64,000 nucleotides of DNA from Alphaproteobacteria bacterium (GTDB lineage: Bacteria > Pseudomonadota > Alphaproteobacteria > Rickettsiales > UBA8987). Positions 14,541 to 60,631 of this stretch are shown here, piece after piece. Below the pieces are notes generated by a model, which made no database searches, had not been told where the DNA came from, and saw only the letters and a list, made by a program, of their open reading frames with translations. How positions within the stretch are numbered: position 1 is the stretch's first letter; the number at the start of each line of letters is the position of its first letter. The translations under genes were made by a program, and so were the position numbers. The stretch covers positions 71,477 to 135,476 of the forward strand of contig JANPLD010000068.1 in NCBI GenBank assembly GCA_031426355.1. Reading direction: 5' to 3'.

Positions 14541-14563
14541 AGAGTTAATAAATTATTAACTCT
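14541..14563 (-). terminator. Intrinsic terminator of ppdK (11-bp-arm perfect palindrome followed by a T-run on the minus strand)
   Basis: AGAGTTAATAA-A-TTATTAACTCT overlaps the ppdK TAG stop by 2 nt. The minus strand continues TTTTATG. Confidence 0.55.
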
Positions 14564-20728: not shown

Positions 20729-20833
20729 AATTTGACCTATAGCCCTATTATACTCTCTTTAAAGGGGTTGGTCAAATTTATTATATTTCAATGAGTTACT
20801 CAGTTAACGAAGTTTTAATGCTTTTGTGTTAAT

Positions 20834-38439: not shown

Positions 38440-40821
38440 TCATAATAAAACCTCTGTAATTGCCACCTCCCCCCGCCCGACTTTATCAGACATCTGGTAT
38501 ATTCTGGCGGTAAAGTTAGTTGCTAGAGAACCAAAGTCAGAACTCTGCATACCTTCAGTATAATTAAAACTTGGAGAGGTTATTTTCTCAGTCCTTTTTA
38601 AAGTAGAAGCATCGAAAATGTCTATTTCATATTCTTCCTTAGTTTCAAAAACAGGGATCTCTACACTTGAAGAAAAAGAGATATTACCGCGTGATCTTCT
38701 CAGCCATTGTATATTGATGTCATCATCCATTTCCCTTTCGGCAGAAATATGGACAGGTGAATATGGCTTTAATGAATTTCCAGAAAAGTTAATTTCTTTT
38801 GCGGTAACATCATCTGCACTTTTACCAAAGGTTACAGCTTTTATCCAGATAGTTTGGCCGATCTGTGAAACAGGCATCTCTATCTTTAAAACATTCTCAT
38901 CAAGCAGGATGAACCTGCTGCCTGCAGGATGAGTTTCACCTGCGTAATTTTCTGTACCCTGACGGCCGCGATATAAGTGGCTAAGCGTATATTTATTTAA
39001 TTCTGTCTGGTTGATATTTTTAAACTGAAAATTTTCATTTCCTATCAAAGCTAAATTTCCAAATGATTGTAGATTATCTTCTGTTAGTGATTCTAAAGTT
39101 CCACCGATCAAATTTATATTCAGCTGATTAATTTTATCAATAACAGGGGAGCTGAATTGTAACAGTTCAGTTTCAATAACTCCCATTGTTGCAGGGGAAA
39201 CAATATCAGTTATTTTCTGAAAACCTTCTGTTGCGGAAATATTGCTTACATATATTGCGCAACCATTCCAGTTAGAAGAAGTACCGCAGACAGCCAGATG
39301 CAGATATGCTTTATCTATTGAAGTTTCATTTGGCAAATGATGTGTATCAATTATCTCAAAATAAGTATCGGAGATAGGTTCCAGATTTTCACTGTTATAA
39401 TCAGTCGTAAGTTCCTCATTGGCGGAAGAATAAAAATCATTTTCAAATCTTATTGCAGATATTTTTATCTTGCCTTGCTGCGTGAGTGAGGAAATTATTT
39501 TCAGCTTATAGGTCTCATCATTTTTAATGATGTTCACTATATCGCCTGCTTCAATATATAAATATTCAGATGGCAGTGAGAATTCTATCTTCTGAGTTAT
39601 TGCTTCCTCTTCAAGAAGTAAAGTTTGTGCTATTTTTTCAGCATATGATCTGTTCAATAATAATGGCAGATTAATCTCAATACCGGATGAATTATTTTTA
39701 TCTTCGCGCGAGATGTCAAAATTTCCGACAAGGTAATTATTATTTTCCGATATATAATTAAGGCTGAGGTTTGAAGTAATATTCAGGCTAGATGCATTTT
39801 CAAACAGCATGGTCTCATTATTCTTTTCGAAAATTAATCTGCTAAAATCTATATTTATTTCTTCAGTGTTTTCACTCTGCCTTGGGAAGAATTTCACTTT
39901 ATCACTTTCAACAAAATCAAAAAAGTAACCTGATTGTAATGTTCGCAGGGCTTCTAAAGCTGTGATAGCACCCGAGAGATTATATCCGCTGACAAGTTTA
40001 TTAACATTATTTATTTCTGGAGTTTCAATACCGGCTTTTTTGCAGAGGTCAGAAATTATATTCTTAAGTTCAGCTACCCCTAATTTTCCATTTATCCAAT
40101 GGCCGCGGCTCCATAAATTTCCATCACCCCAGACATTTTTCATATCAGGGTAAAATGGATAGGACCTCGCATCATAAGCCCAAATAAATTTCTGCTCCAC
40201 CATTTCAGAATTCTGCCATTTTGCCAAGGTTCCCTGAAGCGCCGTTCTTTGCGCCAGAAAATCAATATATCCTTTGGATAAATATGGCAGGTTGCCATCA
40301 ACTGAATCAGGATTATAAAAAACATTTGGCTGATTGGCGCAGCCATCAACTGAAGGAAAACCAAACTCAGTGAACCATATTTTTTTACTTTGTGGTACAA
40401 ACTCTGTTTGTTCTGAATCAGGATTTGTATGAGTATTATTCCACCAATATTCAATATTTTTCCAAGCATCTTGAGGTGTTAAATCTGCTTTTACAGTGCG
40501 TTCTTCATCAGTGTAATACCAGTCATAACCTTCACCATTTTCCCAGCCGTCTATAATTTCTTGCTTATCGTATATTCCATTCTGCTCCCTGTCAGTGAGT
40601 GGGAAATATGCATCGATACCGATGAAATCTATATTGTCTGATGCCCATAGAGGATCCATATTATACCAGCCATTTGTGGAATGGTATTCACTCCAATCCG
40701 CTGCGTAACCTATTTTGGTTTCAGACCCCATTATTGTTTTAACTTCCTCTACAAGGGCTATCAGTTCGTCCACTGCCGAGAAACTATCATCAGCATCCTG
40801 AATTTGTGTCAGGCCTTTCAT
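38440..40821 (-). CDS. GTA host-specificity/tail-fibre protein (RcGTA g15-like), C-terminal fragment; the frame is actually open up to the frameshift at 40910..40915
   Basis: The 793-aa ORF begins inside the conserved …VDAFIIGSEMKGLTQI…TKIGYAADWSEY… TIM-barrel-like region of g15-type proteins. Upstream in the same frame, FFTKTNGYNNFILHYADLVKDKVDAFIIGSE is also readable. Confidence 0.8.
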   Translation of the reverse strand: MKGLTQIQDADDSFSAVDELIALVEEVKTIMGSETKIGYAADWSEYHSTNGWYNMDPLWASDNIDFIGIDAYFPLTDREQNGIYDKQEIIDGWENGEGYDWYYTDEERTVKADLTPQDAWKNIEYWWNNTHTNPDSEQTEFVPQSKKIWFTEFGFPSVDGCANQPNVFYNPDSVDGNLPYLSKGYIDFLAQRTALQGTLAKWQNSEMVEQKFIWAYDARSYPFYPDMKNVWGDGNLWSRGHWINGKLGVAELKNIISDLCKKAGIETPEINNVNKLVSGYNLSGAITALEALRTLQSGYFFDFVESDKVKFFPRQSENTEEINIDFSRLIFEKNNETMLFENASSLNITSNLSLNYISENNNYLVGNFDISREDKNNSSGIEINLPLLLNRSYAEKIAQTLLLEEEAITQKIEFSLPSEYLYIEAGDIVNIIKNDETYKLKIISSLTQQGKIKISAIRFENDFYSSANEELTTDYNSENLEPISDTYFEIIDTHHLPNETSIDKAYLHLAVCGTSSNWNGCAIYVSNISATEGFQKITDIVSPATMGVIETELLQFSSPVIDKINQLNINLIGGTLESLTEDNLQSFGNLALIGNENFQFKNINQTELNKYTLSHLYRGRQGTENYAGETHPAGSRFILLDENVLKIEMPVSQIGQTIWIKAVTFGKSADDVTAKEINFSGNSLKPYSPVHISAEREMDDDINIQWLRRSRGNISFSSSVEIPVFETKEEYEIDIFDASTLKRTEKITSPSFNYTEGMQSSDFGSLATNFTARIYQMSDKVGRGEVAITEVLL

Positions 40822-40856
40822 TTCTGAGCCGATGATAAATGCATCTACCTTATCTT

Positions 40857-42146
40857 TTACCAGATCAGCATAATGAAGAATAAAATTATTATACCCGTTG
40901 GTTTTAGTGAAAAAATATGAACTTCAGATGAATCGCAGGTTATATATCCGCGCCATGGCTTATCTATAATATCCATAAAAATCATCGGATAGAATTTTAC
41001 TTTTAGTCCTCTGTTTGTTGCTTCTTCTATAAATCTTAAAATACTTTCATCACTTGGTGTGCCGCCATAAATAGGGCGTTCATCTGCGTAAGTTACCAGC
41101 GCTGCAGTGTCGCGGTTATATCCAGCAACATGCCATTCAGTGGGAAAAGTTTTCGTCTGGGTTTTATATTCTACGCGTGGCGCAACAGTGCAAACATTTG
41201 CATCAAGTGAATTGCCAAACCAGCAGCAAACCAGACTTACATATTCAATATTTGGGAAATTATTTTGTAAATTATCCAAGGCAACTAATGCATCTGCTTT
41301 ACCGCTGGCATTATTCTGATTGATAAATTTTTCTTCACCGGTCTGGTGCCAGATACCTAAAATTTCCACCCCATCTTTTTTACTATGGGTTAAAGTATCA
41401 TAAACAAATTCGCCGCTTCCCGGTATAATATTCACTGCGGTAACATTATTTTCTAGATTGTTTTCATCTCCTGATATTTTTAAATTGCGGATTATCTCAA
41501 AAGTGAAATTCGGTATTCTGCCCCTAAATTCAGTTAGTTCAAAATCTTCAAAAACTATATAGGCAAGGCCACGATATGCAGGGGTTTTATTTTCACCTTC
41601 ATAAGATTCTATTACAGGGTCTGGAAGTTGGGTTTCATCCCCTTTATAGATACTGTAAGAAGCGCAGTAATCATTGGGATTGATCAGATTTGAATCTGCC
41701 CAGACACGGTCGACATAGTCAATTTCACCTTCGCATAATGCAATGGCGATATTTACGAAATAACGGAAATTAGTTTCGGTTTTCCTTTCTACTTTCGCGC
41801 TGCTGCCTTTACCGCCCTGATTGACAGGTGCTCTTTCTTCGACGATCCTGACATTGGTTGACCAGACGATATTACCGGCTATCCTTGTTTTGCCGTAAAT
41901 TATAGGGATCGCGTCACCATAAGAAGATTTCTGTATTGAGAAATCAGTTAGTTTTTTTCCTCGGATTATATTCTTTTCATTCTCACCGAAAAGGTTTGAA
42001 TCAATTGAATTGCCGAGCCTTGTGGCTCCGGCATTAAGCCCTTCTTTAACCTGACCCTCAACAATATTACCGAATACCGGGATCTGCGAAAGACCAAATG
42101 ATTCTACAAAACTATTTGATGCACTTGTTAATACTGTTGTTGTCAT
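40857..42146 (-). CDS. GTA host-specificity/tail-fibre protein (RcGTA g15-like), N-terminal fragment
   Basis: …YGKTRIAGNIVW…FRYFVNIAIALCEGEIDYVDRVWADSNLI…YKGDETQLPDPVIESYEG…PAYRGLAYIVFEDFELTEFRGRIPNFTFEI… matches the conserved N-terminus of alphaproteobacterial GTA g15 proteins. The last 30 or so residues are out-of-frame nonsense. Confidence 0.8.
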   Translation of the reverse strand: MTTTVLTSASNSFVESFGLSQIPVFGNIVEGQVKEGLNAGATRLGNSIDSNLFGENEKNIIRGKKLTDFSIQKSSYGDAIPIIYGKTRIAGNIVWSTNVRIVEERAPVNQGGKGSSAKVERKTETNFRYFVNIAIALCEGEIDYVDRVWADSNLINPNDYCASYSIYKGDETQLPDPVIESYEGENKTPAYRGLAYIVFEDFELTEFRGRIPNFTFEIIRNLKISGDENNLENNVTAVNIIPGSGEFVYDTLTHSKKDGVEILGIWHQTGEEKFINQNNASGKADALVALDNLQNNFPNIEYVSLVCCWFGNSLDANVCTVAPRVEYKTQTKTFPTEWHVAGYNRDTAALVTYADERPIYGGTPSDESILRFIEEATNRGLKVKFYPMIFMDIIDKPWRGYITCDSSEVHIFSLKPTGIIILFFIMLIW

Positions 42147-42158
42147 AACTTCATTAAT

Positions 42159-42584
42159 TTAGTTTTTGATTCTATAAATTTTTACTATCTTTGATCTCCA
42201 CACATCATTAAGGCGATGTTTCACCGCTTTGCCAATCTGGCTGTAACAGTGAATGAGTGCTAGGTTTTCATTATTATATTTCGTGATGAAGCCAGTATGC
42301 TGAGGGAATTTTCCGAACTTCATCAGAAATATATCACCTTCTTGCATCTTATTTTTTTCAATTGAAAGAAGCGAAGCTTCCATTTTTTCCTGCAGTAAAA
42401 ATGTTGAGGGGATACGGGAATATCCTGCTTCATCATTTTGCGTGAGGTCAACTTCGCAATTTTTCAGGACAGTTAGTACAAACCCTATGCAATCAACACC
42501 TATAGCAATATTCCTGCCTTGATGGACAAAGGGAACTCCGATCAGTTTTTCAGCTTCTGAGATTATTTTATTTTGTAAATCCAT
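42159..42584 (-). CDS. NlpC/P60-family cell-wall peptidase (RcGTA g14-like)
   Basis: 141 aa. …GVPFVHQGRNIAIGVDCIGFVL… provides the catalytic Cys context, followed by …HTGFI…LIHCY. Position between the g13- and g15-like genes. Confidence 0.8.
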   Translation of the reverse strand: MDLQNKIISEAEKLIGVPFVHQGRNIAIGVDCIGFVLTVLKNCEVDLTQNDEAGYSRIPSTFLLQEKMEASLLSIEKNKMQEGDIFLMKFGKFPQHTGFITKYNNENLALIHCYSQIGKAVKHRLNDVWRSKIVKIYRIKN

Positions 42585-42586
42585 AT

Positions 42587-43414
42587 CTATACTTTTAATA
42601 TCCTGTCTGTTCCCGGGATATGAGGTTCCCCACGAAAATTAATTATGTTGTCGAATTTGGAGATACAGGTTTGTGAATTTTTATCGCAGCCTACAGAGAC
42701 CTGATATTCATCACCTGTTTCAATATCTTTTATAAGAGAAGTAAGAAGTTTGAATTTGCCTTCTGTGAAATTTGCGATCTCTCTTATAGAACCAGAGTTC
42801 GCGCCGCTTAAGAATGTAATCACCCCTTTTGAGAAATAATTTTTCTCTTCAGTTCGCGCGGTATCAATGAATTCCATTTTATTTATTGTGAATGTAACTG
42901 CTCCTGAGAATGTATGGTCAGCAATATTTATTCCGCATTTGCTATCGCCAAATTTTGCTCTGCAATTAGGTGAGAAATTCTGTGATATTCTGTTTTTAAG
43001 TAATGAAGAATATCCTGATATCTCAATAAATAATTTATCGTCATCATATCTTATTTTTGAAATAAAACCTTTTTTGAGAATTAATTTCCCATCTTCAGGA
43101 GATTCATAATTCAGTAAAAATATTTCTATATCGGCAGAATCTAATTTACTTGATTCAACTTCAGTTTTTGAGATGATATCATCTTCAATAACACTTAAGA
43201 TACTTTCTTTTTTATTAACTGAAAACCCTGAATAATCAGCAAAGATATCAGATGACAGATAAGGTTTATAAATATTGCCGTCATATTGGAATTCCTTATC
43301 GAAACTGGTTAAGGCGATCACTGATCCATCCTTACAGGTAATAAGAATGAATTTTGCTAAGGTTGTTACTTCTTTTGCAAGATGCCCTTTTAAATTTTCG
43401 GAAATGTTTTTCAT
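42587..43414 (-). CDS. DUF2163 / BR0599-type phage protein (RcGTA g13-like hub protein)
   Basis: 275 aa. Contains …TLAKFILITCKDGSVIALTSFDKEFQYDGNIYKP… and the C-terminal CDKNSQTCISKFDNIINFRGEPHIPG motif typical of this family. Confidence 0.78.
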   Translation of the reverse strand: MKNISENLKGHLAKEVTTLAKFILITCKDGSVIALTSFDKEFQYDGNIYKPYLSSDIFADYSGFSVNKKESILSVIEDDIISKTEVESSKLDSADIEIFLLNYESPEDGKLILKKGFISKIRYDDDKLFIEISGYSSLLKNRISQNFSPNCRAKFGDSKCGINIADHTFSGAVTFTINKMEFIDTARTEEKNYFSKGVITFLSGANSGSIREIANFTEGKFKLLTSLIKDIETGDEYQVSVGCDKNSQTCISKFDNIINFRGEPHIPGTDRILKV

Positions 43415-44013
43415 ATTTTTACCTCTATCAATTCAATTTTTGACATTGAAGCTTTGGAGAAATTTTCTGTTGAGTATGAAAGGATATCTGAGTTGAAACG
43501 CGCCGGAACATCGAATTCGAAATCTGCTTTTACCACCACAGAATTTGCAGGAGGACTTGAAAAAGTAATAACTCCATTATTATTCCCGAGGGAAAATCCC
43601 GAAGCCTGCTTAATATTATCAAGATAGACCTATATGCTCTGCGGCACCGGTTTCGTAATTTTTCTCTCAATCTCATAAATCTCATCTCCGTATTTTTTAA
43701 TAAGCTGGAATTGTGTTTTTAAATTATTGCCTGTTCCGAGTATTTGGCCTTTCGCCTGAAAATCTGCCCAGTCTTTGAAGCGGAAGCCATAGGCCATACC
43801 CCGGCGTGCGATAAAGAAATCGCGGATCTTTTCTGCCTGAGCGGTAGAAATATTTTTGAAATCGATCTCATATTTCGCGCGAGGGATTGAATTATTTATA
43901 TTCCGCTTCTCGTGGCCGCTCGTCATTAAATTAACGGAAGTTGAGAATTCCTGACCACCTTGCGCTTTAAAAGAAATATCTGCGGGGAACCTTGCTTCGT
44001 GAAAATCTGTCAT
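43411..44013 (-). pseudogene. DUF2460 protein (RcGTA g12-like) interrupted by an in-frame TAG at 43630..43632
   Basis: The track ORF 43630..44013 (FHEARFPADISF…GGQEF…SGHEKRN…RRGMAYGFRFKDWADF…KPVPQSI*) stops at TAG. The same frame continues for 72 codons (VYLDN…GVITFSSPPANSVVVKADFEFDVPARFNSDIL…) to a TGA that overlaps the g13-like ATG. Together this is about 200 aa, the normal length of the family. Confidence 0.8.
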
Positions 44014-44109
44014 TGGGAATCTCCTATAAAATTATTCTGCGATAGAGATTATAAACTTCCTTTGATGCCGGATTTATATCGGCCTTGCCCCTATTCTCAA
44101 AACGATAGG

Positions 44110-44577
44110 CTATCTGGTAAAAAGCGCCGTTTTGATGATCTGTGGAACATTATCTGCTTCCTCACCATATCCGGCAAAGTAATCTATGTAGATAAACTTT
44201 GCAGAAGGAAGAACATCAAAAAAGAGGAAATATTTTGCCGGAGAAAGATAATAATTCGAAGCAGAAAATGCTGTTTCATCACCATTTTTATCTATCAATT
44301 TTACCGAGTCGATAGAACTTACCGGACCCATCGGCAAATCAACTTCCATTTCAGTTGAACTGCAATATGCAAGGCGCCATTTCTGTGTGATGAGAGAAGC
44401 CTTCATATATTTTTCAGCTTCGATACGAGCTGATTTTATAAGATCCTCAATAGTACTATTTTCTGCATCGCCGCTGATGCGTAAGAATTCCTTTACTTCA
44501 TCTGCTGTTACCGGTTCAATTTCCGGTTCAGTTAATTTTATCAATTCCGGTTTCCTGCTTTTAAAAATTCCGAACAT
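44110..44577 (-). CDS. gp6-type head-tail connector/adaptor (RcGTA g6-like), C-terminus displaced by a frameshift
   Basis: …PVTADEVKEFLRISGDAENSTIEDLIKSARIEAEKYMKASLITQKW… is the gp6-like N-terminal signature. The expected C-terminal …YRFENRGKADINPASKEVYNLYRRIIL* is readable in the -1 frame down to TAG 44024..44026. Confidence 0.75.
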   Translation of the reverse strand: MFGIFKSRKPELIKLTEPEIEPVTADEVKEFLRISGDAENSTIEDLIKSARIEAEKYMKASLITQKWRLAYCSSTEMEVDLPMGPVSSIDSVKLIDKNGDETAFSASNYYLSPAKYFLFFDVLPSAKFIYIDYFAGYGEEADNVPQIIKTALFTR

Positions 44578-44657
44578 GATGCTCCTTTATTTGTATGTTT
44601 AAAATCCTTCTATTTTTAAGATTATGTGCGAAAAAATATGTGCGGAAGGGTGAAAAT

Positions 44658-44694
44658 TCATGTGCCACACCATGAATAAGCATGGCACATGAAG
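44658..44694 (-). terminator. Hairpin/terminator immediately downstream of the capsid gene
   Basis: TTCATGTGCC (44658..44667) pairs with GGCACATGAA (44685..44694), with an inner CCATG/CATGG extension. On the minus strand it is followed by TTTTCACCC. Confidence 0.55.
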
Positions 44695-44701
44695 TAAAAA
44701 A

Positions 44702-45904
44702 CTAACTAGCTGCCAGTTTTAATAATTTGATCGCTTCAAAATTAACCACACCACCACCTACACGTTTAGTCGTGTAGAATTTCACGAATGGTTTTTCAGT
44801 GTATGGATCGCGGAGGATGCGGATACCTGTCCTATCAACGATCTGATATGCACGTTTAAAATCTGCAACGGCAACTGAAAGTGAGTTGGTTGCGGGAACC
44901 GGCATATCGGAAGCCTTAACCACTGGAACGCCGAGTAATGTATCAGGCGTTCCTGCTGTTAGGCCGGGCTGCCAGAGATATTGATTCGTAGTTGCTTCTT
45001 TCAGTAAACGAACTGCCTGAACTGTTGCTCTGTTCATCATGAAGGCGTTATTTGCATATTCATCTTTTAAAGCATAATAGAGTTTGATGAGTGAATCGGA
45101 AGTTACCGCGCCTGCTGAAAGTGAGCTGATCTGTTCAATCTGCCCGGCACCGGTTCCTGCGGTATAGGCAAGTATACCTTTTGGTTTGCCCGAACCATTA
45201 CCTGAAACAAAGGCAGTGTTTTCTTTGCGTGAGAAAACTTCCACCAGTTTTTCAGTAAGCCAGCTTTCAATATCAATTGACGAATCATCAATTAATTTTT
45301 GCGTTGCCTTAGGCTGTGCCACAAGCTCATATGCAGTGATAGAAAGCTTGCCGATCTGCGGTGTATCGGAATCAGAAACGGCAGCGGATTCTGAAGATGC
45401 CCAGTCTGCTCCAGCTTCGTCGCTATCTTCTATTATTTCGAAAACGTCAGATGAAAGTTGCGTAACATTTGCAACCTGCCTCATTGGTGAGCTTTCATAG
45501 ATGATGCGTGCAAGCTGCGCGCTCATTTGCGGTGTAACCAGATATCCGCCGTCTGCATCAGTGCCAACTGAAAGGGCTTTCTTCTCGAGGAAAGAAAGAT
45601 CACCTTCAACGCCTTTACGAACGTAATTGATGAAAGCTGCTTTATGTTCGCCTGCAATATTTGATGAAACATCGCTTTTATATTCACCACCAAGTGAGGG
45701 GCGGTTCAGAACTGTCTCAACACCGTCAAGACGGTTCTTGAATTCGTCTATTACATTATTTAATTTGTTAATATGATTTGTTGTTAAAGAATCCGCAGAG
45801 CCTTTTTTCTCTATCTCCTGCAGCCTCCTTTCATTAAGTTTTTTGAAATCATCCCATGCGGAGCCGAGTTCATCAACTTTTCTTGTTATTGTAGAAATAC
45901 TCAT
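44702..45904 (-). CDS. HK97-family major capsid protein (RcGTA g5-like)
   Basis: 400 aa. An N-terminal coiled delta-like region (…VDELGSAWDDFKKLNERRLQEIEKKG…) is followed by the HK97-fold body (…GGYLVTPQMS…, …NQYLWQPGLTAGTPDTLLGVPV…). Confidence 0.9.
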   Translation of the reverse strand: MSISTITRKVDELGSAWDDFKKLNERRLQEIEKKGSADSLTTNHINKLNNVIDEFKNRLDGVETVLNRPSLGGEYKSDVSSNIAGEHKAAFINYVRKGVEGDLSFLEKKALSVGTDADGGYLVTPQMSAQLARIIYESSPMRQVANVTQLSSDVFEIIEDSDEAGADWASSESAAVSDSDTPQIGKLSITAYELVAQPKATQKLIDDSSIDIESWLTEKLVEVFSRKENTAFVSGNGSGKPKGILAYTAGTGAGQIEQISSLSAGAVTSDSLIKLYYALKDEYANNAFMMNRATVQAVRLLKEATTNQYLWQPGLTAGTPDTLLGVPVVKASDMPVPATNSLSVAVADFKRAYQIVDRTGIRILRDPYTEKPFVKFYTTKRVGGGVVNFEAIKLLKLAAS

Positions 45905-45912
45905 AATTTTCC

Positions 45913-46422
45913 TTATTTTAAAATGTTAATTGTCTTGTCCAGTAAGGAGAGAAGCTCTGCTTCAGGCTCATCTGATTTTACACTGAGGATCTTTGCGGAA
46001 TCATTGGCCGGGAAAGTGACCAGACTTATTTCGAATAATTCTGCTTTTTTGATTACGCGAACTTCGGTTTCATCATCAATTTCAAAATCAGTGACCCTGA
46101 AACCAATGCTTAAGCCTTTCAGCGCACCGCTTTTGAGGAGTGCGTAAGCTTCGCGAGCGCGTTCGATCTCAAGTAGAAGCTGGCCTTCAACGTACAGTCC
46201 GTTGTCATCTTCTTCTATGTGAGTAAAAATCCCGATCGGTTCATCTGCGCGGTGTTGCCAGAGTAATTTTATTTCCCCGGCATTTTTGGTCAGATCTGAA
46301 AAAGCACCTTCCAGAATTATATCATCGTGATTATCTATAACGCCGAATACGCTGGCGTAACCTGAGAAAAAACCCTTTTTATTAAGAGATTTTATCTCAA
46401 GGGAATAATTATAATTTTGCAT
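45913..46422 (-). CDS. HK97-family prohead protease (RcGTA g4-like)
   Basis: 169 aa. GYASVFGVIDNHDDIILEGAF…LWQHR…PIG…LSIGF…EISLVTFPAN matches the S78/U35 prohead protease pattern. Confidence 0.88.
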   Translation of the reverse strand: MQNYNYSLEIKSLNKKGFFSGYASVFGVIDNHDDIILEGAFSDLTKNAGEIKLLWQHRADEPIGIFTHIEEDDNGLYVEGQLLLEIERAREAYALLKSGALKGLSIGFRVTDFEIDDETEVRVIKKAELFEISLVTFPANDSAKILSVKSDEPEAELLSLLDKTINILK

Positions 46423-46556
46423 AAGATAATTTATTAATGATTAAATCTAAAGTAAGACAATGCTTCACCTTACATTCTTAAGGTTATGGATGAAAAATAG
46501 AGTGCGGAAGGGAGCTGAATAAGATTTTGATTAAAATCTTTATTGTAAGAGGTGAA

Positions 46557-46592
46557 ATTATGCTCTATATTATGTTCTAGATTATGTTCTAG
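46557..46592 (+). promoter_or_regulatory. Three tandem 12-mers (ATTATGYTCTAK) upstream of recA; candidate operator/promoter element
   Basis: ATTATGCTCTAT / ATTATGTTCTAG / ATTATGTTCTAG at 46557..46568, 46569..46580 and 46581..46592. They end 29 nt before the recA ATG and contain GTTC-N8-GTTC. Confidence 0.45.
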
Positions 46593-46621
46593 TTTTCAAA
46601 AAAATTAATGATGTAGGTTTT

Positions 46622-47641
46622 ATGGATAAAAAGAAAGCATTAGAAACAGCACTTAGCCAGATCGAAAAAGCATATGGCAAAGGCTCGATAATGAAGCTTG
46701 GTGACAAGGAACATGTAAGTGTTGAAGCTATTTCAACAGGTTCTCTTGGTTTAGATATGGCTTTAGGAATTGGCGGAATACCGCGTGGTAGGGTAATCGA
46801 GATATTTGGCCCGGAAAGTTCTGGTAAAACTACGCTTACACTTCACATTATTGCAGAAGCGCAGAAAAAAGGCGGAGCTTGTGCATTTATAGATGCTGAG
46901 CATGCACTTGATCCTGTTTATGCAGAAAAACTTGGTATTAAAATTGATGATCTTATTATTTCCCAACCGGATACTGGTGAACAAGCATTAGAGATAGTAG
47001 ATACTTTAGTTCGCTCAGGTGCAGTTGATGTTGTAGTAATCGATTCCGTTGCGGCACTTGTACCAAAAGCTGAGATCGAAGGTGAAATGGGTGATGCACA
47101 AATGGGTGCTCAAGCAAGGCTAATGAGTCAAGCGCTTCGTAAACTTACAGGCTCAATATCAAAAACAAACTGTACGGTTATTTTCATTAACCAAATCCGT
47201 CAGAAAATTGGCGTTATGTTTGGTAACCCTGAAACTACCACAGGTGGTAATGCCCTTAAATTCTATGCTTCTGTGCGTTTGGATATACGTAGGACTGGTG
47301 CTATCAAAGATAAAGACGTAAATATCGGGAACTTGACAAGAGCAAAGGTTGTTAAGAACAAAGTTTCCCCTCCTTTCAAACAGGCTGATTTTGAAATAAT
47401 CTACGGCGAAGGTATTTCCCGTATCGGTGAGATAATTGATATGGGCGCAAATGCCAATATCATTGAAAAAGCTGGTTCATGGTTTGCTTATAATGGCACA
47501 AGGATAGGCCAAGGTAAGGAAAATGCTAAGCAATATCTCAAAGATAATCCGAAAATAGCTAAGGAAATTGAAGAGAAGATAAGGGCGCAAGCTGCTTCAC
47601 TTACCACTACCATAGCAAATTCGGAAGAGGATGCAGCTTAG
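46622..47641 (+). CDS. recA: Recombinase RecA
   Basis: [35 protein letters not shown] (Walker A), [22 protein letters not shown] and [37 protein letters not shown]. Confidence 0.98.
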
Positions 47642-47710
47642 TTTGATTATTTGCCAACTATTTCTTTTTGTGTATAAAACATCTTACAAACTGAATGTTA
47701 GCAAGCAATA

Positions 47711-50359
47711 ATGCCGCCAAAAACACTTTCATCAATCCGCACTGCATTTCTGGATTTTTTCAAATCCAAGGGGCATTTTATTGCGCCTTCATCGCCGCTT
47801 ATCCCGCATAGTGACCCGACTTTGATGTTCACTAATGCAGGTATGGTGCAGTTTAAGAATGTATTTGCCGGGCGTGAGGAAATTAAAGATAAGCAAGGCA
47901 AAGTTACACATAGAGTTGCAACATCACAAAAATGTGTTCGTGCCGGTGGAAAACATAATGACCTTGAGAATGTAGGTTATACTACGCGTCACCATACATT
48001 TTTTGAAATGCTAGGTAATTTTAGTTTTGGAGATTATTTTAAAGAAGATGCGATCTCTTATGCATGGGAATTCCTGACAAAAACATTGGCACTTCCTAAA
48101 GATAAATTATGTGTAACTGTTTATCATACGGATGATGAGGCTTTTAATCTTTGGAAGAAAATCGCTAACTTACCTGATGAAAAAATAATACGCATAGCTT
48201 CTGATGATAATTTCTGGGCAATGGCTGATACCGGTCCGTGCGGGCCGTGCAGTGAGATATTCTTTGATCACGGCCCACAAGTTGCAGGCGGCCCGCCAGG
48301 TTCACCTGAACAGGATGGTGACAGGTTCGTTGAGATATGGAACCTTGTATTTATGCAATACGAGAAGTTAGAGAACGGTGAGCGTACAAACCTCCCAAAA
48401 CCATGTATTGATACTGGTATGGGCTTGGAGAGATTGACTACGGTTCTGCAAGGTGTTCACGACAATTATCAAACGGATATTTTTGTAAGATTAATTGAAG
48501 CAAGTAAAAATATTTCAGGGCAGAATAAGCCTGAATTTGATAATTCCCACAGGATAATCTCTGACCATTTACGTTCCACATGCTTCCTGATCGCCGATGG
48601 AGTACTGCCTTCAAATGAAGGTCGAGGATATGTTCTCCGCCGTATAATGCGACGCGCCATGAGGCACTGCCATCGCTTAAGCCCTAATAAAATTATGATG
48701 CACCGTTTAGTTCCAGCATTACTTGCTGAAATGAGCGAAGCGTATCCTGAGCTTGAACGCGCAAGAGCCTTAATTATACAAACGATTGAAAATGAGGAAG
48801 AAAGATTCAGGGAAACTTTGGGCAATGGTTTAAAGGTCCTTGAAAATGAATCGAAGCATTTAAAGAATAAAACCCTTTCAGGCGAAATTGCTTTCAAACT
48901 TTATGATACTTATGGGTTTCCAATAGATCTTACGCAGGATATCCTCAAAGAAAGAGGGATAAAAGTTGATGAAGCTGGTTTTAACGCAGCATTAGGAAAA
49001 CAGAAAGAAAAAGCCCGGGCTAATTGGACAGGAAGTGGTGAAGCTGCGACTGAAACATTATGGCTAGAACTTGCAAAGGAACTGGAGGAAACAGAATTCT
49101 TAGGATATACTAATACAAACTCATCAGGTGATGTAATTGCCATTATTGCGAGTGGTGCAAAACAGAATAAATTATCAGAAGGTGAAGGCGCGATAATCAC
49201 CAACCAGACACCTTTCTATGCGGAATCTGGTGGTCAGGCTGGCGATAGGGGTTTCATCAAAAACGATAAAGGTGTTTTTGAAGTTCATGATACTAAAAAA
49301 TTCAGCGGTTCATTATTTGTACATTTCGGAAAAATGATTTCCGGTGAAATCAAAATGCATGACATTGCCAAACTTGAAGTTAATGAGAATCGCAGGGCAA
49401 GGGTACGCAAGAACCATTCTGCTACCCATATACTTCATGCGGTGTTGAGGAAAAACCTTGGCGACCATGTAACACAAAAAGGCTCACTGGTTGAGGAAGA
49501 TTATCTACGTTTTGATTTTTCAAACCCTAAAGCTGTTACTGATGAAGAGATCAGAAAGATAGAATTTGAAGTTAACAAAATAATTTCTCAAAATACTTTG
49601 GTGAATACCAAGATCATGAATATTGACCAGGCCTTAGAATCAGGAGCTATGGCATTATTCGGCGAGAAATATTCTGATGAGGTTCGCGTACTTTCTATGG
49701 GTGATAGTTACTCAGTAGAGCTTTGCGGCGGAATACATGTTGAACGCACCGGAGATATCGGAACCTTCCGTATCACTAAGGAGTCCGGCGTTGCATCAGG
49801 TGTCAGAAGGATAGAAGCTGTAACCGACCAGAAAGCATTGGAATTTGTTTTCAGCAAGGAAGATAAATTAAACAATATAATGGAGATAACCAAATCTTCA
49901 GAAAATGATGTTGTTGAGAAATTGGAAAAGCTTCTTCTTGAGAGAAAAGAGCTGGAAAAGCAGGTTTCTGAACTTAAGAAGAAAGCTGCTCTTGGCGGAA
50001 ATTCAGGCTCTAGTAATAATAATGAAGAAGTGGAAGTAATAAATGGAACGAAGTTCCTTGCTAAAAAACTTGATGGCGTTGATGCGAAAGACCTGCGCGG
50101 TATTGTTGACGAAATAAAAACCAAACACACTTCATGTGTAGTATTTTTGGTTGCGGAGAATAAAGGCAAGGTTTCAGTTCTGGCGGGTGTTACCAATGAC
50201 CTTACAAATAAAATATCTGCCGTTGATATAGTTAAGAAATCCGTTGAGATAATGGGCGGCAAAGGCGGTGGCGGGCGCCCGGATTTTGCCCAAGGCGGCG
50301 CTCCTGATAGCAATAATTACGAGAAAGCTATTGTAGAGATTAAAAAACTAATTATATAA
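47711..50359 (+). CDS. alaS: Alanine--tRNA ligase
   Basis: 882 aa. Contains FTNAGMVQFKNVF, RHHTFFEMLGNFSFGDYFK, the editing-domain HSATHILH, and CGGIHV. Confidence 0.97.
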   Translation: MPPKTLSSIRTAFLDFFKSKGHFIAPSSPLIPHSDPTLMFTNAGMVQFKNVFAGREEIKDKQGKVTHRVATSQKCVRAGGKHNDLENVGYTTRHHTFFEMLGNFSFGDYFKEDAISYAWEFLTKTLALPKDKLCVTVYHTDDEAFNLWKKIANLPDEKIIRIASDDNFWAMADTGPCGPCSEIFFDHGPQVAGGPPGSPEQDGDRFVEIWNLVFMQYEKLENGERTNLPKPCIDTGMGLERLTTVLQGVHDNYQTDIFVRLIEASKNISGQNKPEFDNSHRIISDHLRSTCFLIADGVLPSNEGRGYVLRRIMRRAMRHCHRLSPNKIMMHRLVPALLAEMSEAYPELERARALIIQTIENEEERFRETLGNGLKVLENESKHLKNKTLSGEIAFKLYDTYGFPIDLTQDILKERGIKVDEAGFNAALGKQKEKARANWTGSGEAATETLWLELAKELEETEFLGYTNTNSSGDVIAIIASGAKQNKLSEGEGAIITNQTPFYAESGGQAGDRGFIKNDKGVFEVHDTKKFSGSLFVHFGKMISGEIKMHDIAKLEVNENRRARVRKNHSATHILHAVLRKNLGDHVTQKGSLVEEDYLRFDFSNPKAVTDEEIRKIEFEVNKIISQNTLVNTKIMNIDQALESGAMALFGEKYSDEVRVLSMGDSYSVELCGGIHVERTGDIGTFRITKESGVASGVRRIEAVTDQKALEFVFSKEDKLNNIMEITKSSENDVVEKLEKLLLERKELEKQVSELKKKAALGGNSGSSNNNEEVEVINGTKFLAKKLDGVDAKDLRGIVDEIKTKHTSCVVFLVAENKGKVSVLAGVTNDLTNKISAVDIVKKSVEIMGGKGGGGRPDFAQGGAPDSNNYEKAIVEIKKLII

Positions 50360-50855
50360 GCCTACTTTTTTCAGGAGAATCTGTTTTTAATGGTAGATTC
50401 TTTTCCATATCAGGATTTAATATCTTTAATGCTAATGTTCTAGCTTCCTGATTTAATTCAATATCTGTGCTGTTATTTTGCCAAGGCATATCCGGATCAA
50501 AATTATTATTTTGTGATATATTCTGAATAAATTTCCTATAGTTTTTTGGAGCTAAAATTTTTCCTTCCGATTCTTTTTCATTTTTACATGTAACAACTAC
50601 ATTAGTTTGTTCTAAAAATTTATTTAACTCACGTATTGTATCTTCTTTAGTATGAAGCTTATTTTTAGAATCTAAATATTTTCCATTATTTGTTTTATTA
50701 TAAGATAATGAAATACCGTTCTCATTTGTAATAGTAAAACCGGTAAAATCTTTTCCTTCCTGATTTCTATCATTTTCATCAAATAAAACCGTTACTTTCG
50801 GTTTACCAGAATGTTGCTGCTGTTGCTGAATTCCTGTTTGAGCTAAAAATATCAT
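50352..50855 (-). CDS. Hypothetical protein (AT-rich orphan with N-terminal poly-Gln)
   Basis: 167-aa ORF (…GIQQQQQHSGKP…). No recognisable motif. It overlaps the alaS 3' end convergently by 8 nt. Confidence 0.4.
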   Translation of the reverse strand: MIFLAQTGIQQQQQHSGKPKVTVLFDENDRNQEGKDFTGFTITNENGISLSYNKTNNGKYLDSKNKLHTKEDTIRELNKFLEQTNVVVTCKNEKESEGKILAPKNYRKFIQNISQNNNFDPDMPWQNNSTDIELNQEARTLALKILNPDMEKNLPLKTDSPEKSRLI

Positions 50856-50897
50856 ATTTCCTCTATTAGATTACAAAGCTATAATAGCACTAAATTG

Positions 50898-50912
50898 TTA
50901 ATAAAACGTTAA
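50898..50912. promoter_or_regulatory. CtrA-box-like site TTAA-N7-TTAA upstream of the portal gene
   Basis: TTAATAAAACGTTAA lies 144 nt upstream of the portal ATG, in the divergent intergenic region. This is an AT-rich context, so a chance occurrence is plausible. Confidence 0.25.
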
Positions 50913-51055
50913 TTAGGGTATTATTTAACCATCTGAAAACAATAGCAATTTTTTATCACGTCATTACAGATTTGATTTTCTACCTCATAATCCCTTCCGG
51001 GCGTTATTTTTCATAAATATCTTGGTTAGTAGGTGATTCAACTAACAGGGCTAAT

Positions 51056-52258
51056 ATGAAAAAATCTAAACGATCTATCTTTTCTATATTCAAAAAATTT
51101 TCTCCTAAAAAAATAGAGAAAAAAAGTTTAAGTTCTGATCAGTATAAGACATATTTCTATGACTCGGCAAAACCTGTGTGGATGAGCCGTAATTACGGAA
51201 AATTCGCTGACGAAGGTTATATCAGGAATGTCATTGCGAATCGCTGCGCTTCAATGATAGCAAAAAATATTTCATCGATAAAAATAAAATTATTTGAGAA
51301 TAATTCCGAAAAGAAATTCGAGATAAAAAACCATCCGCTGCTTAATATTATCAGATTCCCTAACCCCGCAACTAATGGGAATCTATTCAGGGAAGCACTT
51401 TTCTCACACCGCCTTATAAGCGGCAATTCCTATATATTAGCGGTTAAGAATTCTGCCGGGATACCGCTTGAACTTTATACTCTACGTCCTGATAGAATAA
51501 GCATTACAACTGACAGATCAGGTTTTGTGACCTCATATATTTATAAAGGAACTGATAAGGAAATACGTTATTCAGTTGATAAACTGACTGGGCAATCTGA
51601 TGTTCTGCATCTTAAGAACTTCCACCCGCTTGATGATCATTTTGGACTCAGCCCTATAGAGCCTGCGGCATATTCAATTGACCAGCATAATCAGGCGGCC
51701 CAGTGGAACCAAAGTTTACTTCAGAATGGTGCGAAGCCAAGCGGCGCGCTCGTAATAAAACCGCAGAATGAAGGCGGGATGGGTAGCCTTACAGATGAGC
51801 AATACACAAGAATAAAAAGGCAGATGGAGGAGGAATTCAGCGGACATAATAATGCTGGGAAACCTATGCTGCTGGAAGGTGGCTTAGACTGGAAAGAGAT
51901 GAGCCTGTCGCCACGTGATATGGATTTTATCTCATCAAAACATAATTCTGCCCGTGAAATTGCGCTGGCATTTGGTGTGCCACCGCAACTACTCGGAATT
52001 CCAGGTGATAACACTTACAGTAATTTGATTGAGGCAAGACTTGAACTCTGGGAACAAACAATACTTCCGCTTGCAGAAGAATATATTTCCGCTCTTAACC
52101 ACTGGCTGACGCCAATGTTCAATAATGATGACCTTGAGCTTGATATAGAGAATATTCCGGCGCTTCTGCCGCGCAGGGAAAGCCTGTGGAAACGGGTAAA
52201 TGAAAGCAGTTTTATTTCAGAAGAGGAAAAAAGAAGACTGGTTGGAATGGGAGATTAG
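51056..52258 (+). CDS. HK97-family phage portal protein (RcGTA g3-like)
   Basis: 400 aa. …YIRNVIANRCASMIAKNISSIKIKLF…GNSYIL…LHLKNFHPLDDHFGLSPIEPAAYSIDQHN…NGAKPSGAL…PRDMDFI… matches the HK97-type portal pattern. Confidence 0.9.
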   Translation: MKKSKRSIFSIFKKFSPKKIEKKSLSSDQYKTYFYDSAKPVWMSRNYGKFADEGYIRNVIANRCASMIAKNISSIKIKLFENNSEKKFEIKNHPLLNIIRFPNPATNGNLFREALFSHRLISGNSYILAVKNSAGIPLELYTLRPDRISITTDRSGFVTSYIYKGTDKEIRYSVDKLTGQSDVLHLKNFHPLDDHFGLSPIEPAAYSIDQHNQAAQWNQSLLQNGAKPSGALVIKPQNEGGMGSLTDEQYTRIKRQMEEEFSGHNNAGKPMLLEGGLDWKEMSLSPRDMDFISSKHNSAREIALAFGVPPQLLGIPGDNTYSNLIEARLELWEQTILPLAEEYISALNHWLTPMFNNDDLELDIENIPALLPRRESLWKRVNESSFISEEEKRRLVGMGD

Positions 52259-52272
52259 GTTATATAGGATAC

Positions 52273-52515
52273 ATGAAAAGAATATCCATAAAAGTAACAC
52301 CTAAATCATCAAAAAACAAAGTTGTTCCTGATATAATGCCTGATGAAAAAGGTAACGAATTTTTTCGGGTCTTTATAACTTCAGTTCCTGAGAATAATAA
52401 GGCCAATAAAGCTGTGATAGAGCTACTGGCCGGATATTTTGACGTTGCAAAAAGTGATGTCAGGATAGTTTCAGGACTTACCTCAAAAAGCAAAATCATA
52501 GATATTAATTTATGA
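52273..52515 (+). CDS. DUF167 (YggU-like) protein
   Basis: 80 aa. ISIKVTPKSSKNKV…VFITSVPENNKANKAVIELLAGYFDVAKSDVRIVSGLTSKSKII is the YggU/DUF167 signature. Confidence 0.8.
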   Translation: MKRISIKVTPKSSKNKVVPDIMPDEKGNEFFRVFITSVPENNKANKAVIELLAGYFDVAKSDVRIVSGLTSKSKIIDINL

Positions 52516-52802
52516 TCTTTTCAGTAAGTGAGATCGTAATATATTTTATCTTAATAAATATAATTACATTTACACTTTTCAGGTTAGACAAGAAATCTGC
52601 AATAGACGGTACATGGAGAATAACTGAAAGAACTTTGATAATATTTTGCTTGCTTGGCGGAACACCTGCCGGGTTTTTTGCTGGCAAGATATACCGGCAT
52701 AAAACATCCGATCAATCATTCAAATCAAAATTTGTAATGGTGTATGTATTGCAGGGTTTTATGATCGCCTGCCTGATCATTAAAGGTTTAGGTTTGGTTT
52801 AA
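52512..52802 (+). CDS. DUF1294 membrane protein
   Basis: 96 aa. F.LDKKSAIDGTWRITERTLIIFCLLGGTPAGFFAGKIYRHKT matches DUF1294. ATGA overlap with the DUF167 gene. Confidence 0.75.
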   Translation: MIFSVSEIVIYFILINIITFTLFRLDKKSAIDGTWRITERTLIIFCLLGGTPAGFFAGKIYRHKTSDQSFKSKFVMVYVLQGFMIACLIIKGLGLV

Positions 52803-58868: not shown

Positions 58869-59573
58869 TTATTGTCTTCCTCTTTGCTCATTATTTTGAA
58901 TAGGAATATTATTTATGTTTCCATTACCGGCAATAGTAATACCTTGTTTAGCTAACCCTAAGTCTTTTGCTTTAACCATTCCCCAAAGAGCATCTGCTAC
59001 AGCCTTTTGTTGAGCTTTATCTCTATTTAAAGATACTCCTGTAGGGGTTTCCTTATCAAAAATCTTTAAGTCATCAATTTTATTAATGTCATTATGACCT
59101 TGTAAGATTACTCCTGAAACAATTTTTCCTTCAGAATTGGCAGTATAAATATAAGTATTTTTATCATCACAAAATCCCCTGATTACATTATTATCAGGAT
59201 AAAATTGTAATTTATCATAATCTCTTTCAAAAGATCCAATAACTACAAAAGAAGAATTCTTGATTGTTATAAAATCTTCATCCACTTTTTCCATATAACC
59301 TTTACCACTTGATAAATCTACCAAAGCAATAGAATTATTTATCTCTACAAAATCATCACGGCTTCCTACTGAAAGATCGCCAATGGAATTAATTAAGCTA
59401 ATCTGATCAACTGTATTTTTTAGAACCAGTACTGCATTAGTATTTTCCAAATTAAATTTGGTACTGGGTGGAATAAGAGCTTGAGTATCATTAAGAGTTT
59501 GATTTAAATTTCCACCTTTCTGGTTAACAATAATTACCGGATCGCCATTATTTTTTGTTTTCATAAGTTTCAT
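58869..59573 (-). CDS. Hypothetical protein (AT-rich orphan), divergent from the LysR gene
   Basis: The track ORF starts at TTG 59795 but would overlap the LysR gene by 136 nt. ATG 59573 (MKLMKTKNNGDPV…) is preferred. No recognisable motif. Confidence 0.45.
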   Translation of the reverse strand: MKLMKTKNNGDPVIIVNQKGGNLNQTLNDTQALIPPSTKFNLENTNAVLVLKNTVDQISLINSIGDLSVGSRDDFVEINNSIALVDLSSGKGYMEKVDEDFITIKNSSFVVIGSFERDYDKLQFYPDNNVIRGFCDDKNTYIYTANSEGKIVSGVILQGHNDINKIDDLKIFDKETPTGVSLNRDKAQQKAVADALWGMVKAKDLGLAKQGITIAGNGNINNIPIQNNEQRGRQ

Positions 59574-59659
59574 TTTTTGATTTCCAGAAAATATAGACAA
59601 AAATCTGTTATTGTTATAGTTAATAGTATTAAAGTTTATTGTTGAAGAATTGAATAGTA

Positions 59660-60631
59660 ATGAAAAACGATATAAATAATTTCTATTATAAAAATAACAG
59701 ACTTCAACAATTGCGGGGGTTTTGCTATGCCGCTCAATTTGGGAATATCTCAAAAGCAGCAGAGCGTATGAATTTAACTCACTCGACTGTATCAATACAA
59801 ATAAAAACTCTTGAAGAAGATTTTAAAATAAAACTCTTTGAAAGAAATGGCCCGAATATAAAAATAACAACTGACGGAGAAAGGCTACTGAAACTTTCTT
59901 TACCCTATATTGAAGGAATTGATAATCTACAGCTTGAATTTAAAAAAGAGCTAAAAATAGAAAAAAGAACCGAGTTCCATATAGCTACTAATAGCACTGG
60001 CCTAAATTTTATCCTGCCGAAAATAATGAAAAAATATCTTAACGCTAATAAAGATATTAATATTACGATTCATTATGCTGAATATCATGAAGCATTAAAA
60101 AAACTAAAATCTGGAGAAGTGGAATTAGCATTACTTCCAAAAAGGGAACATTTACCATTCCCTGATTATTCAGAATATTTACCGGTATTTTTCCATGAAG
60201 TTTCATTGATAACGCAGCTAAATCATCCTCTGGCTGGCAGGAAAAATCTTTCGGTTGAAGAAATAAGCAGATATCCTCTCACATTGCCTGCTGAAGACCT
60301 GAGAGTAATACCTGATCTTTACAATATATTTCCCAAGAATAATATTGATAAAAAACTCCGGATAAAATTTGTTAATTGGGAAACTACAAGAAAATATATT
60401 GAACAAGGGCTTGTTATAAGCATTTCATCAGATGTTATAATTTCTGACGAAGAAGATACGTTAATGGCGACTTCTCTTAAACATTTGTTTCCTAAAATAA
60501 GTTATGGATATGTTTCATTAAAAAATAAAGAGCTGCCAGAAAAAATCAATAATCTGATCGAAGCCTCAAGGGATATTTATTCTGAACGGAAGTGGAATAA
60601 AGTTTATAGAGATAAGAAAAAATCTAAATAG
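59660..60631 (+). CDS. LysR-family transcriptional regulator
   Basis: N-terminal wHTH LQQLRGFCYAAQFGNISKAAERMNLTHSTVSIQIKTLEEDFKIKLFER plus a roughly 200-aa substrate-binding domain. Confidence 0.88.
   Translation: MKNDINNFYYKNNRLQQLRGFCYAAQFGNISKAAERMNLTHSTVSIQIKTLEEDFKIKLFERNGPNIKITTDGERLLKLSLPYIEGIDNLQLEFKKELKIEKRTEFHIATNSTGLNFILPKIMKKYLNANKDINITIHYAEYHEALKKLKSGEVELALLPKREHLPFPDYSEYLPVFFHEVSLITQLNHPLAGRKNLSVEEISRYPLTLPAEDLRVIPDLYNIFPKNNIDKKLRIKFVNWETTRKYIEQGLVISISSDVIISDEEDTLMATSLKHLFPKISYGYVSLKNKELPEKINNLIEASRDIYSERKWNKVYRDKKKSK

Follow-up and report, generated by a model that had tools for sequence, protein, structure and literature searches.

A split gene transfer agent cluster with a divergent portal gene and a shared promoter-like element in a Rickettsiales-labelled alphaproteobacterial lineage

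The cluster and its detached portal gene

The DNA analyzed here is a 64-kb stretch of an alphaproteobacterial genome (positions 71,477 to 135,476 of contig JANPLD010000068.1; the whole stretch is called the window), with a G+C content of ~38–40%. It carries a gene cluster resembling the gene transfer agent (GTA) of Rhodobacter capsulatus (RcGTA) on the minus strand at 38440–46422, and a portal gene, g3, on the plus strand at 51056–52258 (PF04860, TIGR01537), which points away from the cluster. The divergent portal and protease genes are separated by 4.6 kb. Gene identities were assigned by Pfam and NCBIfam profile searches of the open reading frames (ORFs) of the window. The cluster keeps the order g4-g5-g6-g12-g13-g14-g15 on one strand, with the GTA-specific g12, g13, g14 and g15 downstream of an HK97-type protease and capsid. 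These genes are the prohead protease g4 (45913–46422; PF04586, TIGR01543), the major capsid protein g5 (44702–45904; PF05065, TIGR01554), the head-tail connector g6 (44027–44577), the distal tail protein g12 of the Rcc01695 family (43414–44013; TIGR02217), the baseplate hub g13 (42587–43414; TIGR02218, PF09931, PF09356), the NlpC/P60 peptidase g14 (42159–42584; PF00877) and the 'megatron' g15 (38440–42146; NF048004), all on the minus strand. Four of them (g4, g5, g13 and g14) are intact; g6 is frameshifted, g12 contains an in-frame TAG and g15 is called as two ORFs.

Three genes fill the space between protease and portal. On the plus strand lie recA (46622–47641; Pfam RecA, 7e-145), divergent from g4 here and divergent from the portal in most relatives, and the housekeeping gene alaS (47711–50359; Pfam tRNA-synt_2c, 1e-213), which is part of a segment inverted with respect to the common arrangement of the clade. 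On the minus strand, at the alaS/portal junction, is a family-less ORF of 167 aa without known relatives (ORFan; 50352–50855). The portal is the first gene of a tightly spaced unit and is followed on the same strand by DUF167 (52273–52515) and DUF1294 (52512–52802). The profile searches agree at every coordinate with the initial annotation, which had described a portal divergent from the protease, recA, alaS and an AT-rich orphan between the two, and the DUF167 and DUF1294 genes downstream of the portal.

The window cluster lacks the canonical form, a contiguous and co-oriented g1–g15 series with terminase and portal at its 5′ end. The initial annotation had noted no terminase upstream of the portal, and none is found anywhere in the 64 kb by tblastn with five GTA large terminases, one of which is confirmed as a terminase by profile search (best E-value 0.23). 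There is no second portal within the window. Pfam searches of the principal ORFs of ≥100 aa and of the small DUF167 and DUF1294 ORFs detect no integrase or prophage gene in the window, and tRNA and Rfam scans of it find no tRNA and no Rfam match. Neither the locus nor the rest of the window contains g7–g11 (adaptor, tail tube, tape measure); the gap between the g6 ORF and g12 is 96 bp, or 13 bp when the frameshifted g6 tail is counted. The cluster is chromosomal and flanked by housekeeping genes, and its hemC-side position is common to two loci of relatives (L087 and L089; loci are cited by such handles below) and to an independently assembled contig, L096. The remaining genes of the window are housekeeping genes (nuo genes, gyrB, recF, ppdK, glyS, ileS, dnaB, flgBC-fliE, hemC, leuS, pgsA and others).

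The portal protein matches PF04860 over profile positions 4–320 of 321 with an E-value of 1.4e-83 and 281 bits (cutoff 39.1), and TIGR01537 with 227.6 bits (cutoff 112). It was described earlier as an intact ORF of 400 aa, and this holds: all invariant columns of a 23-sequence alignment are present. Portal homologues directly precede g4-g5-g6...g15 in >60 alphaproteobacterial loci. Homologues with 42–58% identity head such g4-g5-g6-...-g15 clusters in dozens of alphaproteobacterial genomes, most with a large terminase on the 5′ side, and the identities of portal and capsid to the window proteins co-vary over 55 loci (Spearman 0.68). Because its homologues head canonical GTA clusters and its divergence follows that of the capsid, sequence comparison identifies the portal as the cluster's own g3 orthologue and not as an unrelated prophage relic. 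A second, cluster-adjacent portal, which the initial annotation had named as the finding that would make this one a relic, does not occur in the window.

Three genes of the cluster carry lesions. In g6, a 1-nt deletion at ~44113–44116 shifts the reading frame and leaves a called ORF of 155 aa, compared with 184 aa in relatives; tblastn with g6 of L095 and L092 splits into two frames on the window, and the tail beyond the deletion, now out of frame, retains 97% identity to L095. The in-frame TAG of g12 is at 43630–43632, codon 128 of 200. In g15, a frameshift near 40893–40914 gives ORFs of 429 aa and 793 aa, which match NF048004 at positions 1–392 and 464–1297, and tblastn with the intact g15 of L092 changes frame. 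Relatives are free of these lesions: g6 (184 aa) and g12 (200 aa) are of full length in L095, while L092 and L098 have all three genes intact. Disruption affects three of the nine GTA genes of the window and none of its 48 other ORFs (Fisher p=0.003). The cluster is therefore not an otherwise intact head module; the initial annotation mentions neither these lesions nor the absence of g7–g11. The cluster is eroding, or partly decaying, with portal, protease and capsid intact, and the lesions in g6, g12 and g15 count against the formation of complete, tailed particles by this organism.

The ratio of nonsynonymous to synonymous substitution rates (dN/dS) was calculated against L095, whose capsid is 94% identical, for g4, g5, g6 and g12. 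It is 0.054 for g4, 0.070 for g5, 0.049 for g6 and 0.047 for the part of g12 before the TAG, while the part after the TAG gives 0.23. The low dN/dS against L095 marks the lesions as recent events in genes that had long been under purifying selection. For the portal, dN is 0.23 and dS is saturated against every available relative, so that no dN/dS estimate can be given. Purifying selection on retained genes is thus indicated by the ratios of g4 and g5, and the portal values are consistent with it; the frameshift and nonsense lesions of g6, g12 and g15 run counter to it.

A promoter-like element upstream of the GTA genes

A composite motif, CCCTTCCG-N18-TAnnnT, is found 48–90 nt upstream of the portal, g4 and g6. 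In the portal element (50992–51023, plus strand), CCCTTCCG occupies 50992–50999 and a −10-like TATCTT occupies 51018–51023, ending 33 nt before the ATG. In the g4 element (46481–46512, minus strand), CCCTTCCG is at 46512–46505 and the −10-like TAACCT at 46486–46481. The g6 element (44619–44650, minus strand) has CCCTTCCG at 44650–44643 and TAATCT at 44624–44619. CCCTTCCG occurs three times in the 64 kb (0.83 expected), every time sense-oriented and 5′ of one of these three genes. The portal and g4 sites are the most alike: both read TCCCTTCCG-N5-TATTTTTCAT, and they are the only sites in the window that match this 24-nt element at ≤3 mismatches (0.09 expected). They also coincide with the longest inverted repeat of the region (46485–46513 and 50991–51019; 29 nt, 79% complementary), which lies in the g4/recA and ORFan/portal spacers. 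With portal and g4 on opposite strands, the same repeat sequence precedes both genes in the same orientation.

The association of the motif with GTA genes extends to the relatives. The pattern C[CA]CTTCC[GA]-N17-18-[TC]AnnnT was searched on both strands of the clade loci, 241,875 bp or 483,750 strand-positions. It has 17 matches, each of them 5′ of a GTA gene or of what remains of one: the portal, g4 or its remnant, g6, an insertion that separates g5 from g6, and the start of the L003 cluster. The intergenic matches in the window are three, all of them the GTA sites, and L097 and L098 supply further sites. The same element is located at the same distance upstream of the portal in L001, L002, L081, L084, L087, L089, L097 and L098, and L095 has a site orthologous to the g6 element of the window, again 5′ of g6. 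When aligned on CTTCCG, twelve sites from eight genomes are 48–88 nt before the start codon except in L003, which has the canonical gene order and where the single copy precedes a small ORF ahead of the terminase. The TAnnnT follows CTTCCG at exactly 18 nt in 10 of the 12 sites; the exceptions are L081, with CACAAT, and L003, with TAATAT at 17 nt. Motif variants co-vary within genomes. The sites of L081 and L092, on different contigs of GCA_964445765.1, both read CCCCTTCCAT...GTTCCAnAAT, those of L002 both read ACTTCCGG, and those of L001 both read ACCCCTTCCGG-N-TAAG. Both motif and spacing persist between genomes that cannot otherwise be aligned in their intergenic DNA.

We interpret CC(C/A)CTTCCG(G)-N17/18-TAnnnT as probably a GTA promoter specific to this clade, which combines a sigma-70-like −10 with a non-canonical operator in the −35 region that would presumably be contacted by a dedicated GTA activator. 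The initial annotation had reasoned that the divergent portal now needs its own promoter. A candidate is present 5′ of the gene and is probably a copy of this clade-specific promoter, its activity being judged from sequence. If the element is such a promoter, we infer that the portal, although detached, is still regulated together with the head genes. The motif is not a general alphaproteobacterial GTA promoter; among 58 loci with a co-oriented terminase match, the full motif precedes the terminase in L003 alone, and the more distant alphaproteobacteria lack it at this place. Control by CtrA was considered for a perfect TTAA-N7-TTAA at 50898–50912 (plus strand) in the ORFan–portal gap, but the window has 7 such patterns where 6.6 would be expected by chance, which leaves the match without weight. 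A generic terminator scan of the region shows no enrichment.

Several other features lie near the elements. Between the capsid stop codon and the g6 element there is a hairpin with a 9-bp stem (CATGTGCCA...TGGCACATG; 44659–44691, minus strand), which may be a terminator, an attenuator or a transcript-stabilizing structure. In L095, two extra ORFs of 55 and 197 aa without a Pfam match stand between g5 and g6 (L095:1781–3235), where the promoter element is present twice (2218 and 3143), the g6-proximal copy closely resembling the g4 element of the window. Two degenerate direct repeats similar to the promoter element (TTCCTTCCGATTCTTTTTCAT and TTCCTTCCTGATTTCTATCAT) are found at 50554–50584 and 50746–50776 (plus strand), on the antisense strand of the ORFan. 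Upstream of recA, at 46555–46595 (plus strand), three tandem 12-nt units (TATGCTCTATAT, TATGTTCTAGAT and TATGTTCTAGTT) form GTTC-N8-GTTC. The alphaproteobacterial LexA box is GTTC-N7-GTTC, and we take the recA-upstream repeat, one base longer, to resemble it. GTTC-like boxes also occur between recA and the GTA promoter in relatives.

Gene order across relatives and a proposed history

The nearest relatives of the window are metagenome-assembled genomes that their submitters label 'Rickettsiales bacterium' or 'Alphaproteobacteria bacterium'. Three arrangements can be distinguished among them. In state A, hemC> <g15...g4 <alaS <recA / portal>, recA is divergent from the portal, and alaS is upstream of g4 and co-oriented with it. 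This order is present in L001, L002, L097 and L098. L087 and L089 retain the frame of state A with g5–g14 deleted: g4 is reduced to codons 2–30 or 2–36 and fused to differing g15 fragments (L087:3745–6036, L089:4586–6067), and the g4-type promoter element and the neighboring intact portal are kept despite the deletion. L084 retains only the recA/portal junction of state A, a junction thus shared by L001, L002, L084, L087, L089, L097 and L098. The seven genomes of this type are metagenomic, with portals 57–63% identical. State B is that of the window, <g15...g4 / recA> alaS> <ORFan / portal>, and its exact order is seen for this organism only. State C belongs to GCA_964445765.1, the closest relative of the window (portal 74%, capsid 77% identical), in which <prfA <recA / g4>...g15> is on contig L092 and ubiE> portal> ppdK> on contig L081. 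The same recA/g4 junction as in L092 is found in GCA_033762595.1 (L094).

The canonical order terL-portal-g4-g5 is present in L003, the next relative out, and in >50 more distant genomes. The split between portal and g4 is common to at least eleven genomes other than that of the window, and in no clade member examined is the terminase still adjacent. The left flank rlmH-flgBC-fliE-hemC is shared by the window, L087 and L089. In the portal identity matrix, the window groups with L081, and L001, L087, L089 and L002 form another group, with L084 and L003 apart. Because clade portal identity falls to 57–63% with saturated synonymous sites, the detachment of the portal from g4 is old; it is also stably inherited and clade-wide. 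The initial annotation had called for a comparison of gene order with related genomes, and had proposed a rearrangement with its breakpoint exactly at the portal/protease junction. Such a rearrangement did take place, seeing that terL, portal, g4 and g5 are in line in L003, but it is ancient and not peculiar to this genome; what sets the window apart is a secondary inversion, that of recA–alaS, and the gain of the ORFan.

State A is represented in two of three sub-lineages, which makes it the most parsimonious ancestral state of the clade, with B and C derived. In the clade ancestor, the portal would have been separated from g4–g15 and inverted relative to them, giving hemC> <g15...g4 <alaS <recA / portal>. 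State A could have arisen if an ancestral block [alaS< recA< portal>], adjacent to g4, inverted once; this step is speculative because no outgroup with the pre-inversion order was found among the loci compared. In the window lineage, the recA–alaS segment would then have inverted, so that recA faces g4, and the two flanking inverted promoter copies are a candidate recombination substrate. The ORFan would have been gained beside the portal in the same lineage, and in the closest relative the portal would have moved to another contig altogether. The outcome would be three separate units, portal, g4–g5 and g6–g15, each with a copy of the clade element. The passage from A to B has better support than the origin of A. 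Measured against the left flank, which is conserved, and the portal, which keeps its orientation, all that separates B from A is a simple inversion of recA–alaS and the gain of the ORFan.

The ORFan has 27% G+C, which matches its earlier description as AT-rich, and is absent from all relatives. It has no Pfam or NCBIfam match, and among 5.8 billion proteins it has no homologue but itself. Its codon positions are coding-like (GC1>GC2>GC3), and one of 2000 shuffles produced an ORF of such length. The ORFan is probably a gene specific to this lineage, young or acquired, and not a chance ORF. A degraded terminase, g3.5 or another known gene was rejected for lack of a family match or homologue.

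Other parts of the window and of related loci show further signs of change. Family-less ORFs by Pfam and NCBIfam are found at 5838–7499 (plus strand), 20369–21604, 58869–59795 (minus strand) and 61707–62150 (plus strand); the segments measured (5838–6737, 6750–7499 and 58869–59795) are AT-rich like the ORFan, with 30–33% G+C. The AT-rich family-less ORFs may represent a class of lineage-specific or acquired genes. A fragment of a VirD4/TraG-type coupling protein (PF02534, profile positions 43–374 of 468) lies at 13166–14497 (minus strand), where the window is richest in AT (26% G+C), and is probably the remnant of a conjugative element. The ppdK gene, directly 3′ of the portal in L081 (11303–13984), is at 14562–17243 (minus strand) in the window, 34 kb from the portal, which indicates extensive local reshuffling. 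In the state-A relative L097, a small gene with a Phage_lysozyme domain (PF00959) is directly 3′ of the portal (L097:9042–9332).

Alternative explanations and relation to known systems

Taken together, the window likely contains a vertically inherited RcGTA-like cluster of a Rickettsiales-labelled alphaproteobacterial lineage, broken into separate transcription units and partly decaying. Several observations weigh against this interpretation or parts of it. With g6, g12 and g15 disrupted in this genome, the system coordinated by the candidate promoter may no longer make a working particle. A generic sigma-70 scan misses the motif sites and its matches are not enriched in the region; a non-canonical −35 would lead one to expect this, yet the scan gives the promoter no positive support. 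Profile searches with NCBIfam and Pfam, which cover the 64-kb window only, reveal no GafA/GafYZ-type regulator among the window ORFs without a Pfam match. The polarity from A to B to C is based on parsimony over the portal identity matrix and not on a resolved species tree. As a substrate for homologous recombination, the 29-nt repeat with 79% complementarity is short, and an inversion through the promoter repeats leaves ~630 bp with the ORFan unexplained, to be added separately.

The split could in principle be an artefact of assembly, a chimeric join or a mis-oriented segment at 46.4–51 kb, given that the window comes from a metagenome-assembled genome and that exact state B is seen for this organism only. 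Independent contigs were located with the g4 and g13 proteins as queries. The Logan contig L091 (SRR20217183), a separate assembly of the same run, is 100% identical to the window along 6539 bp that take in every junction and reach from DUF167 into g4 across portal, ORFan, alaS and recA, and L096 is likewise identical and reproduces the g6, g12 and g15 lesions. These contigs largely refute the mis-assembly that the initial annotation had named as a possible refutation. The recA/g4 junction recurs in L092 and L094, and the portal is detached from g4 in eleven genomes; the probability that we leave to an artefact is negligible. It is also extremely unlikely that the portal belongs to an unrelated prophage relic while the true GTA portal is elsewhere or lost. 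This idea draws on the physical distance of the portal from the cluster and on the lack of a terminase, g3.5 or other phage gene adjoining it. It conflicts with the homologues at the head of canonical clusters in >60 genomes and the divergence that tracks the capsid, with the clade-specific motif that the portal has in common with g4 and g6, and with a window in which integrase, tRNA, other prophage genes and a second portal are not found. In the closest relative, moreover, there is likewise one portal only, detached and from the same lineage.

More weight, though still on the unlikely side, goes to the view that the whole system is a dying relic, in which the portal is intact only because decay has yet to reach it and the motif is a leftover promoter that no longer coordinates anything. 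The broken fraction of the GTA genes, the absence of g7–g11 and terminase from the locus, the deletion of g5–g14 in L087 and L089, and the dN/dS of 0.23 in g12 downstream of the TAG all fit it. Against it stand the intact portal, g4 and g5, with dN/dS of ~0.05–0.07 or, for the portal, saturated dS with low dN. The lesions are young, as the 97% identity of the frameshifted g6 tail to L095, which has none of the three, indicates; motif and spacing are kept where intergenic DNA is otherwise unalignable; and purifying selection on reduced GTA sets of endosymbionts is reported in PMC9254644. We consider it improbable that the portal has been co-opted for a role without the neighboring head-tail genes and is hence kept beside recA. 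Repurposing of reduced GTA structures is raised in PMC9254644, the window portal is intact while tail genes are broken, and the recA/portal junction, intact portal and motif persist in L087 and L089, whose deletions of g5–g14 have different end points. If capsid genes are truly lacking in these two genomes, the cell would be using an HK97-type portal in a stand-alone role. Among the top 120 capsid matches, none is on the contigs of L087, L089 or L084. However, L087 and L089 were read 10 kb to each side of the portal, so that capsid genes may be located elsewhere, no known stand-alone function of an HK97-type portal supports the idea, and saturated dS blocks the dating of the deletions against portal conservation. 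The corresponding claim, that selection maintains the portal independently of the other particle genes, beside recA and behind a GTA-type promoter, is judged just as improbable from the sequences.

A split, vertically inherited GTA cluster bears on how scattered GTA genes stay coordinated, and on whether they still function, in reduced host-associated alphaproteobacteria, whose GTA clusters are known to be fragmented. The clade element offers a testable handle on both, and could define the GTA regulon, including the terminase, regulators and recruited genes, in uncultured lineages. The relatives show a stepwise dismantling, from the canonical cluster to the split portal, the secondary inversion, the portal on another contig and the head-tail deletion, and in this series the last intact GTA gene beside recA is the portal (L087, L089). 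Fragmented GTA clusters in Rickettsiales are already published, and the rearrangement itself is an ordinary example of them. New are a promoter-like motif exclusive to GTA genes, a series of arrangements linked to recA, and evidence for a portal that outlasts the neighboring head-tail genes.

RcGTA and its alphaproteobacterial homologues share with the window the homologues of g3, g4, g5, g6 and g12–g15, the g4–g15 order and a chromosomal location with no integrase. The window differs from them in a portal that is detached and divergent, in having no g1/g2 terminase within 64 kb, in the missing g7–g11 and the disrupted g6, g12 and g15, and in genes that apparently form several transcription units and not one operon. 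The GTAs of Rickettsiales and Holosporaceae are closer. According to George et al. 2022 (PMC9254644), which cites Lang & Beatty 2007 and Shakya et al. 2017 on such sets as well, their genes are spread over several loci with a singlet terminase and missing tail-tube genes, and the reduced sets keep capsid/portal, distal tail, hub and megatron under purifying selection. The window likewise keeps head and portal, distal tail, hub and megatron, lacks g7–g11, and is multi-locus with no adjacent terminase. Portals without an adjacent capsid are also found in L034 (Rickettsia typhi), L017 (Neoehrlichia) and L021 (an Anaplasma endosymbiont). In contrast to the sets described there, three of the retained window genes are pseudogenized; the recA/alaS-linked divergent order, the inversion series and CCCTTCCG-N18-TAnnnT are not mentioned in the consulted parts of that paper.

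For the promoter-like element, the nearest parallels are GafA of R. capsulatus and GafYZ/IHF of C. crescentus. The C-terminal domain of GafA binds the −35/−10 region, and GafA controls dispersed GTA loci (PMC9638019), while GafY/IHF activate the main cluster and ~18 accessory promoters with degenerate −35 (PMC11150451). Unlike in these regulons, the motif sequence in the window is clade-specific, no GafA/GafY homologue was identified among the window ORFs, and binding and activation by such a factor are only supposed here. In both known cases, dispersed GTA loci are activated jointly by a dedicated factor that acts at or near the poor −35 of promoters whose −10 is usable (PMC9638019, PMC11150451), and the window and its relatives may work in a similar way. 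In the clade, the exclusive placement of the 17 matches and their fixed spacing speak for a common promoter architecture at dispersed GTA loci, not for dependence on an activator.

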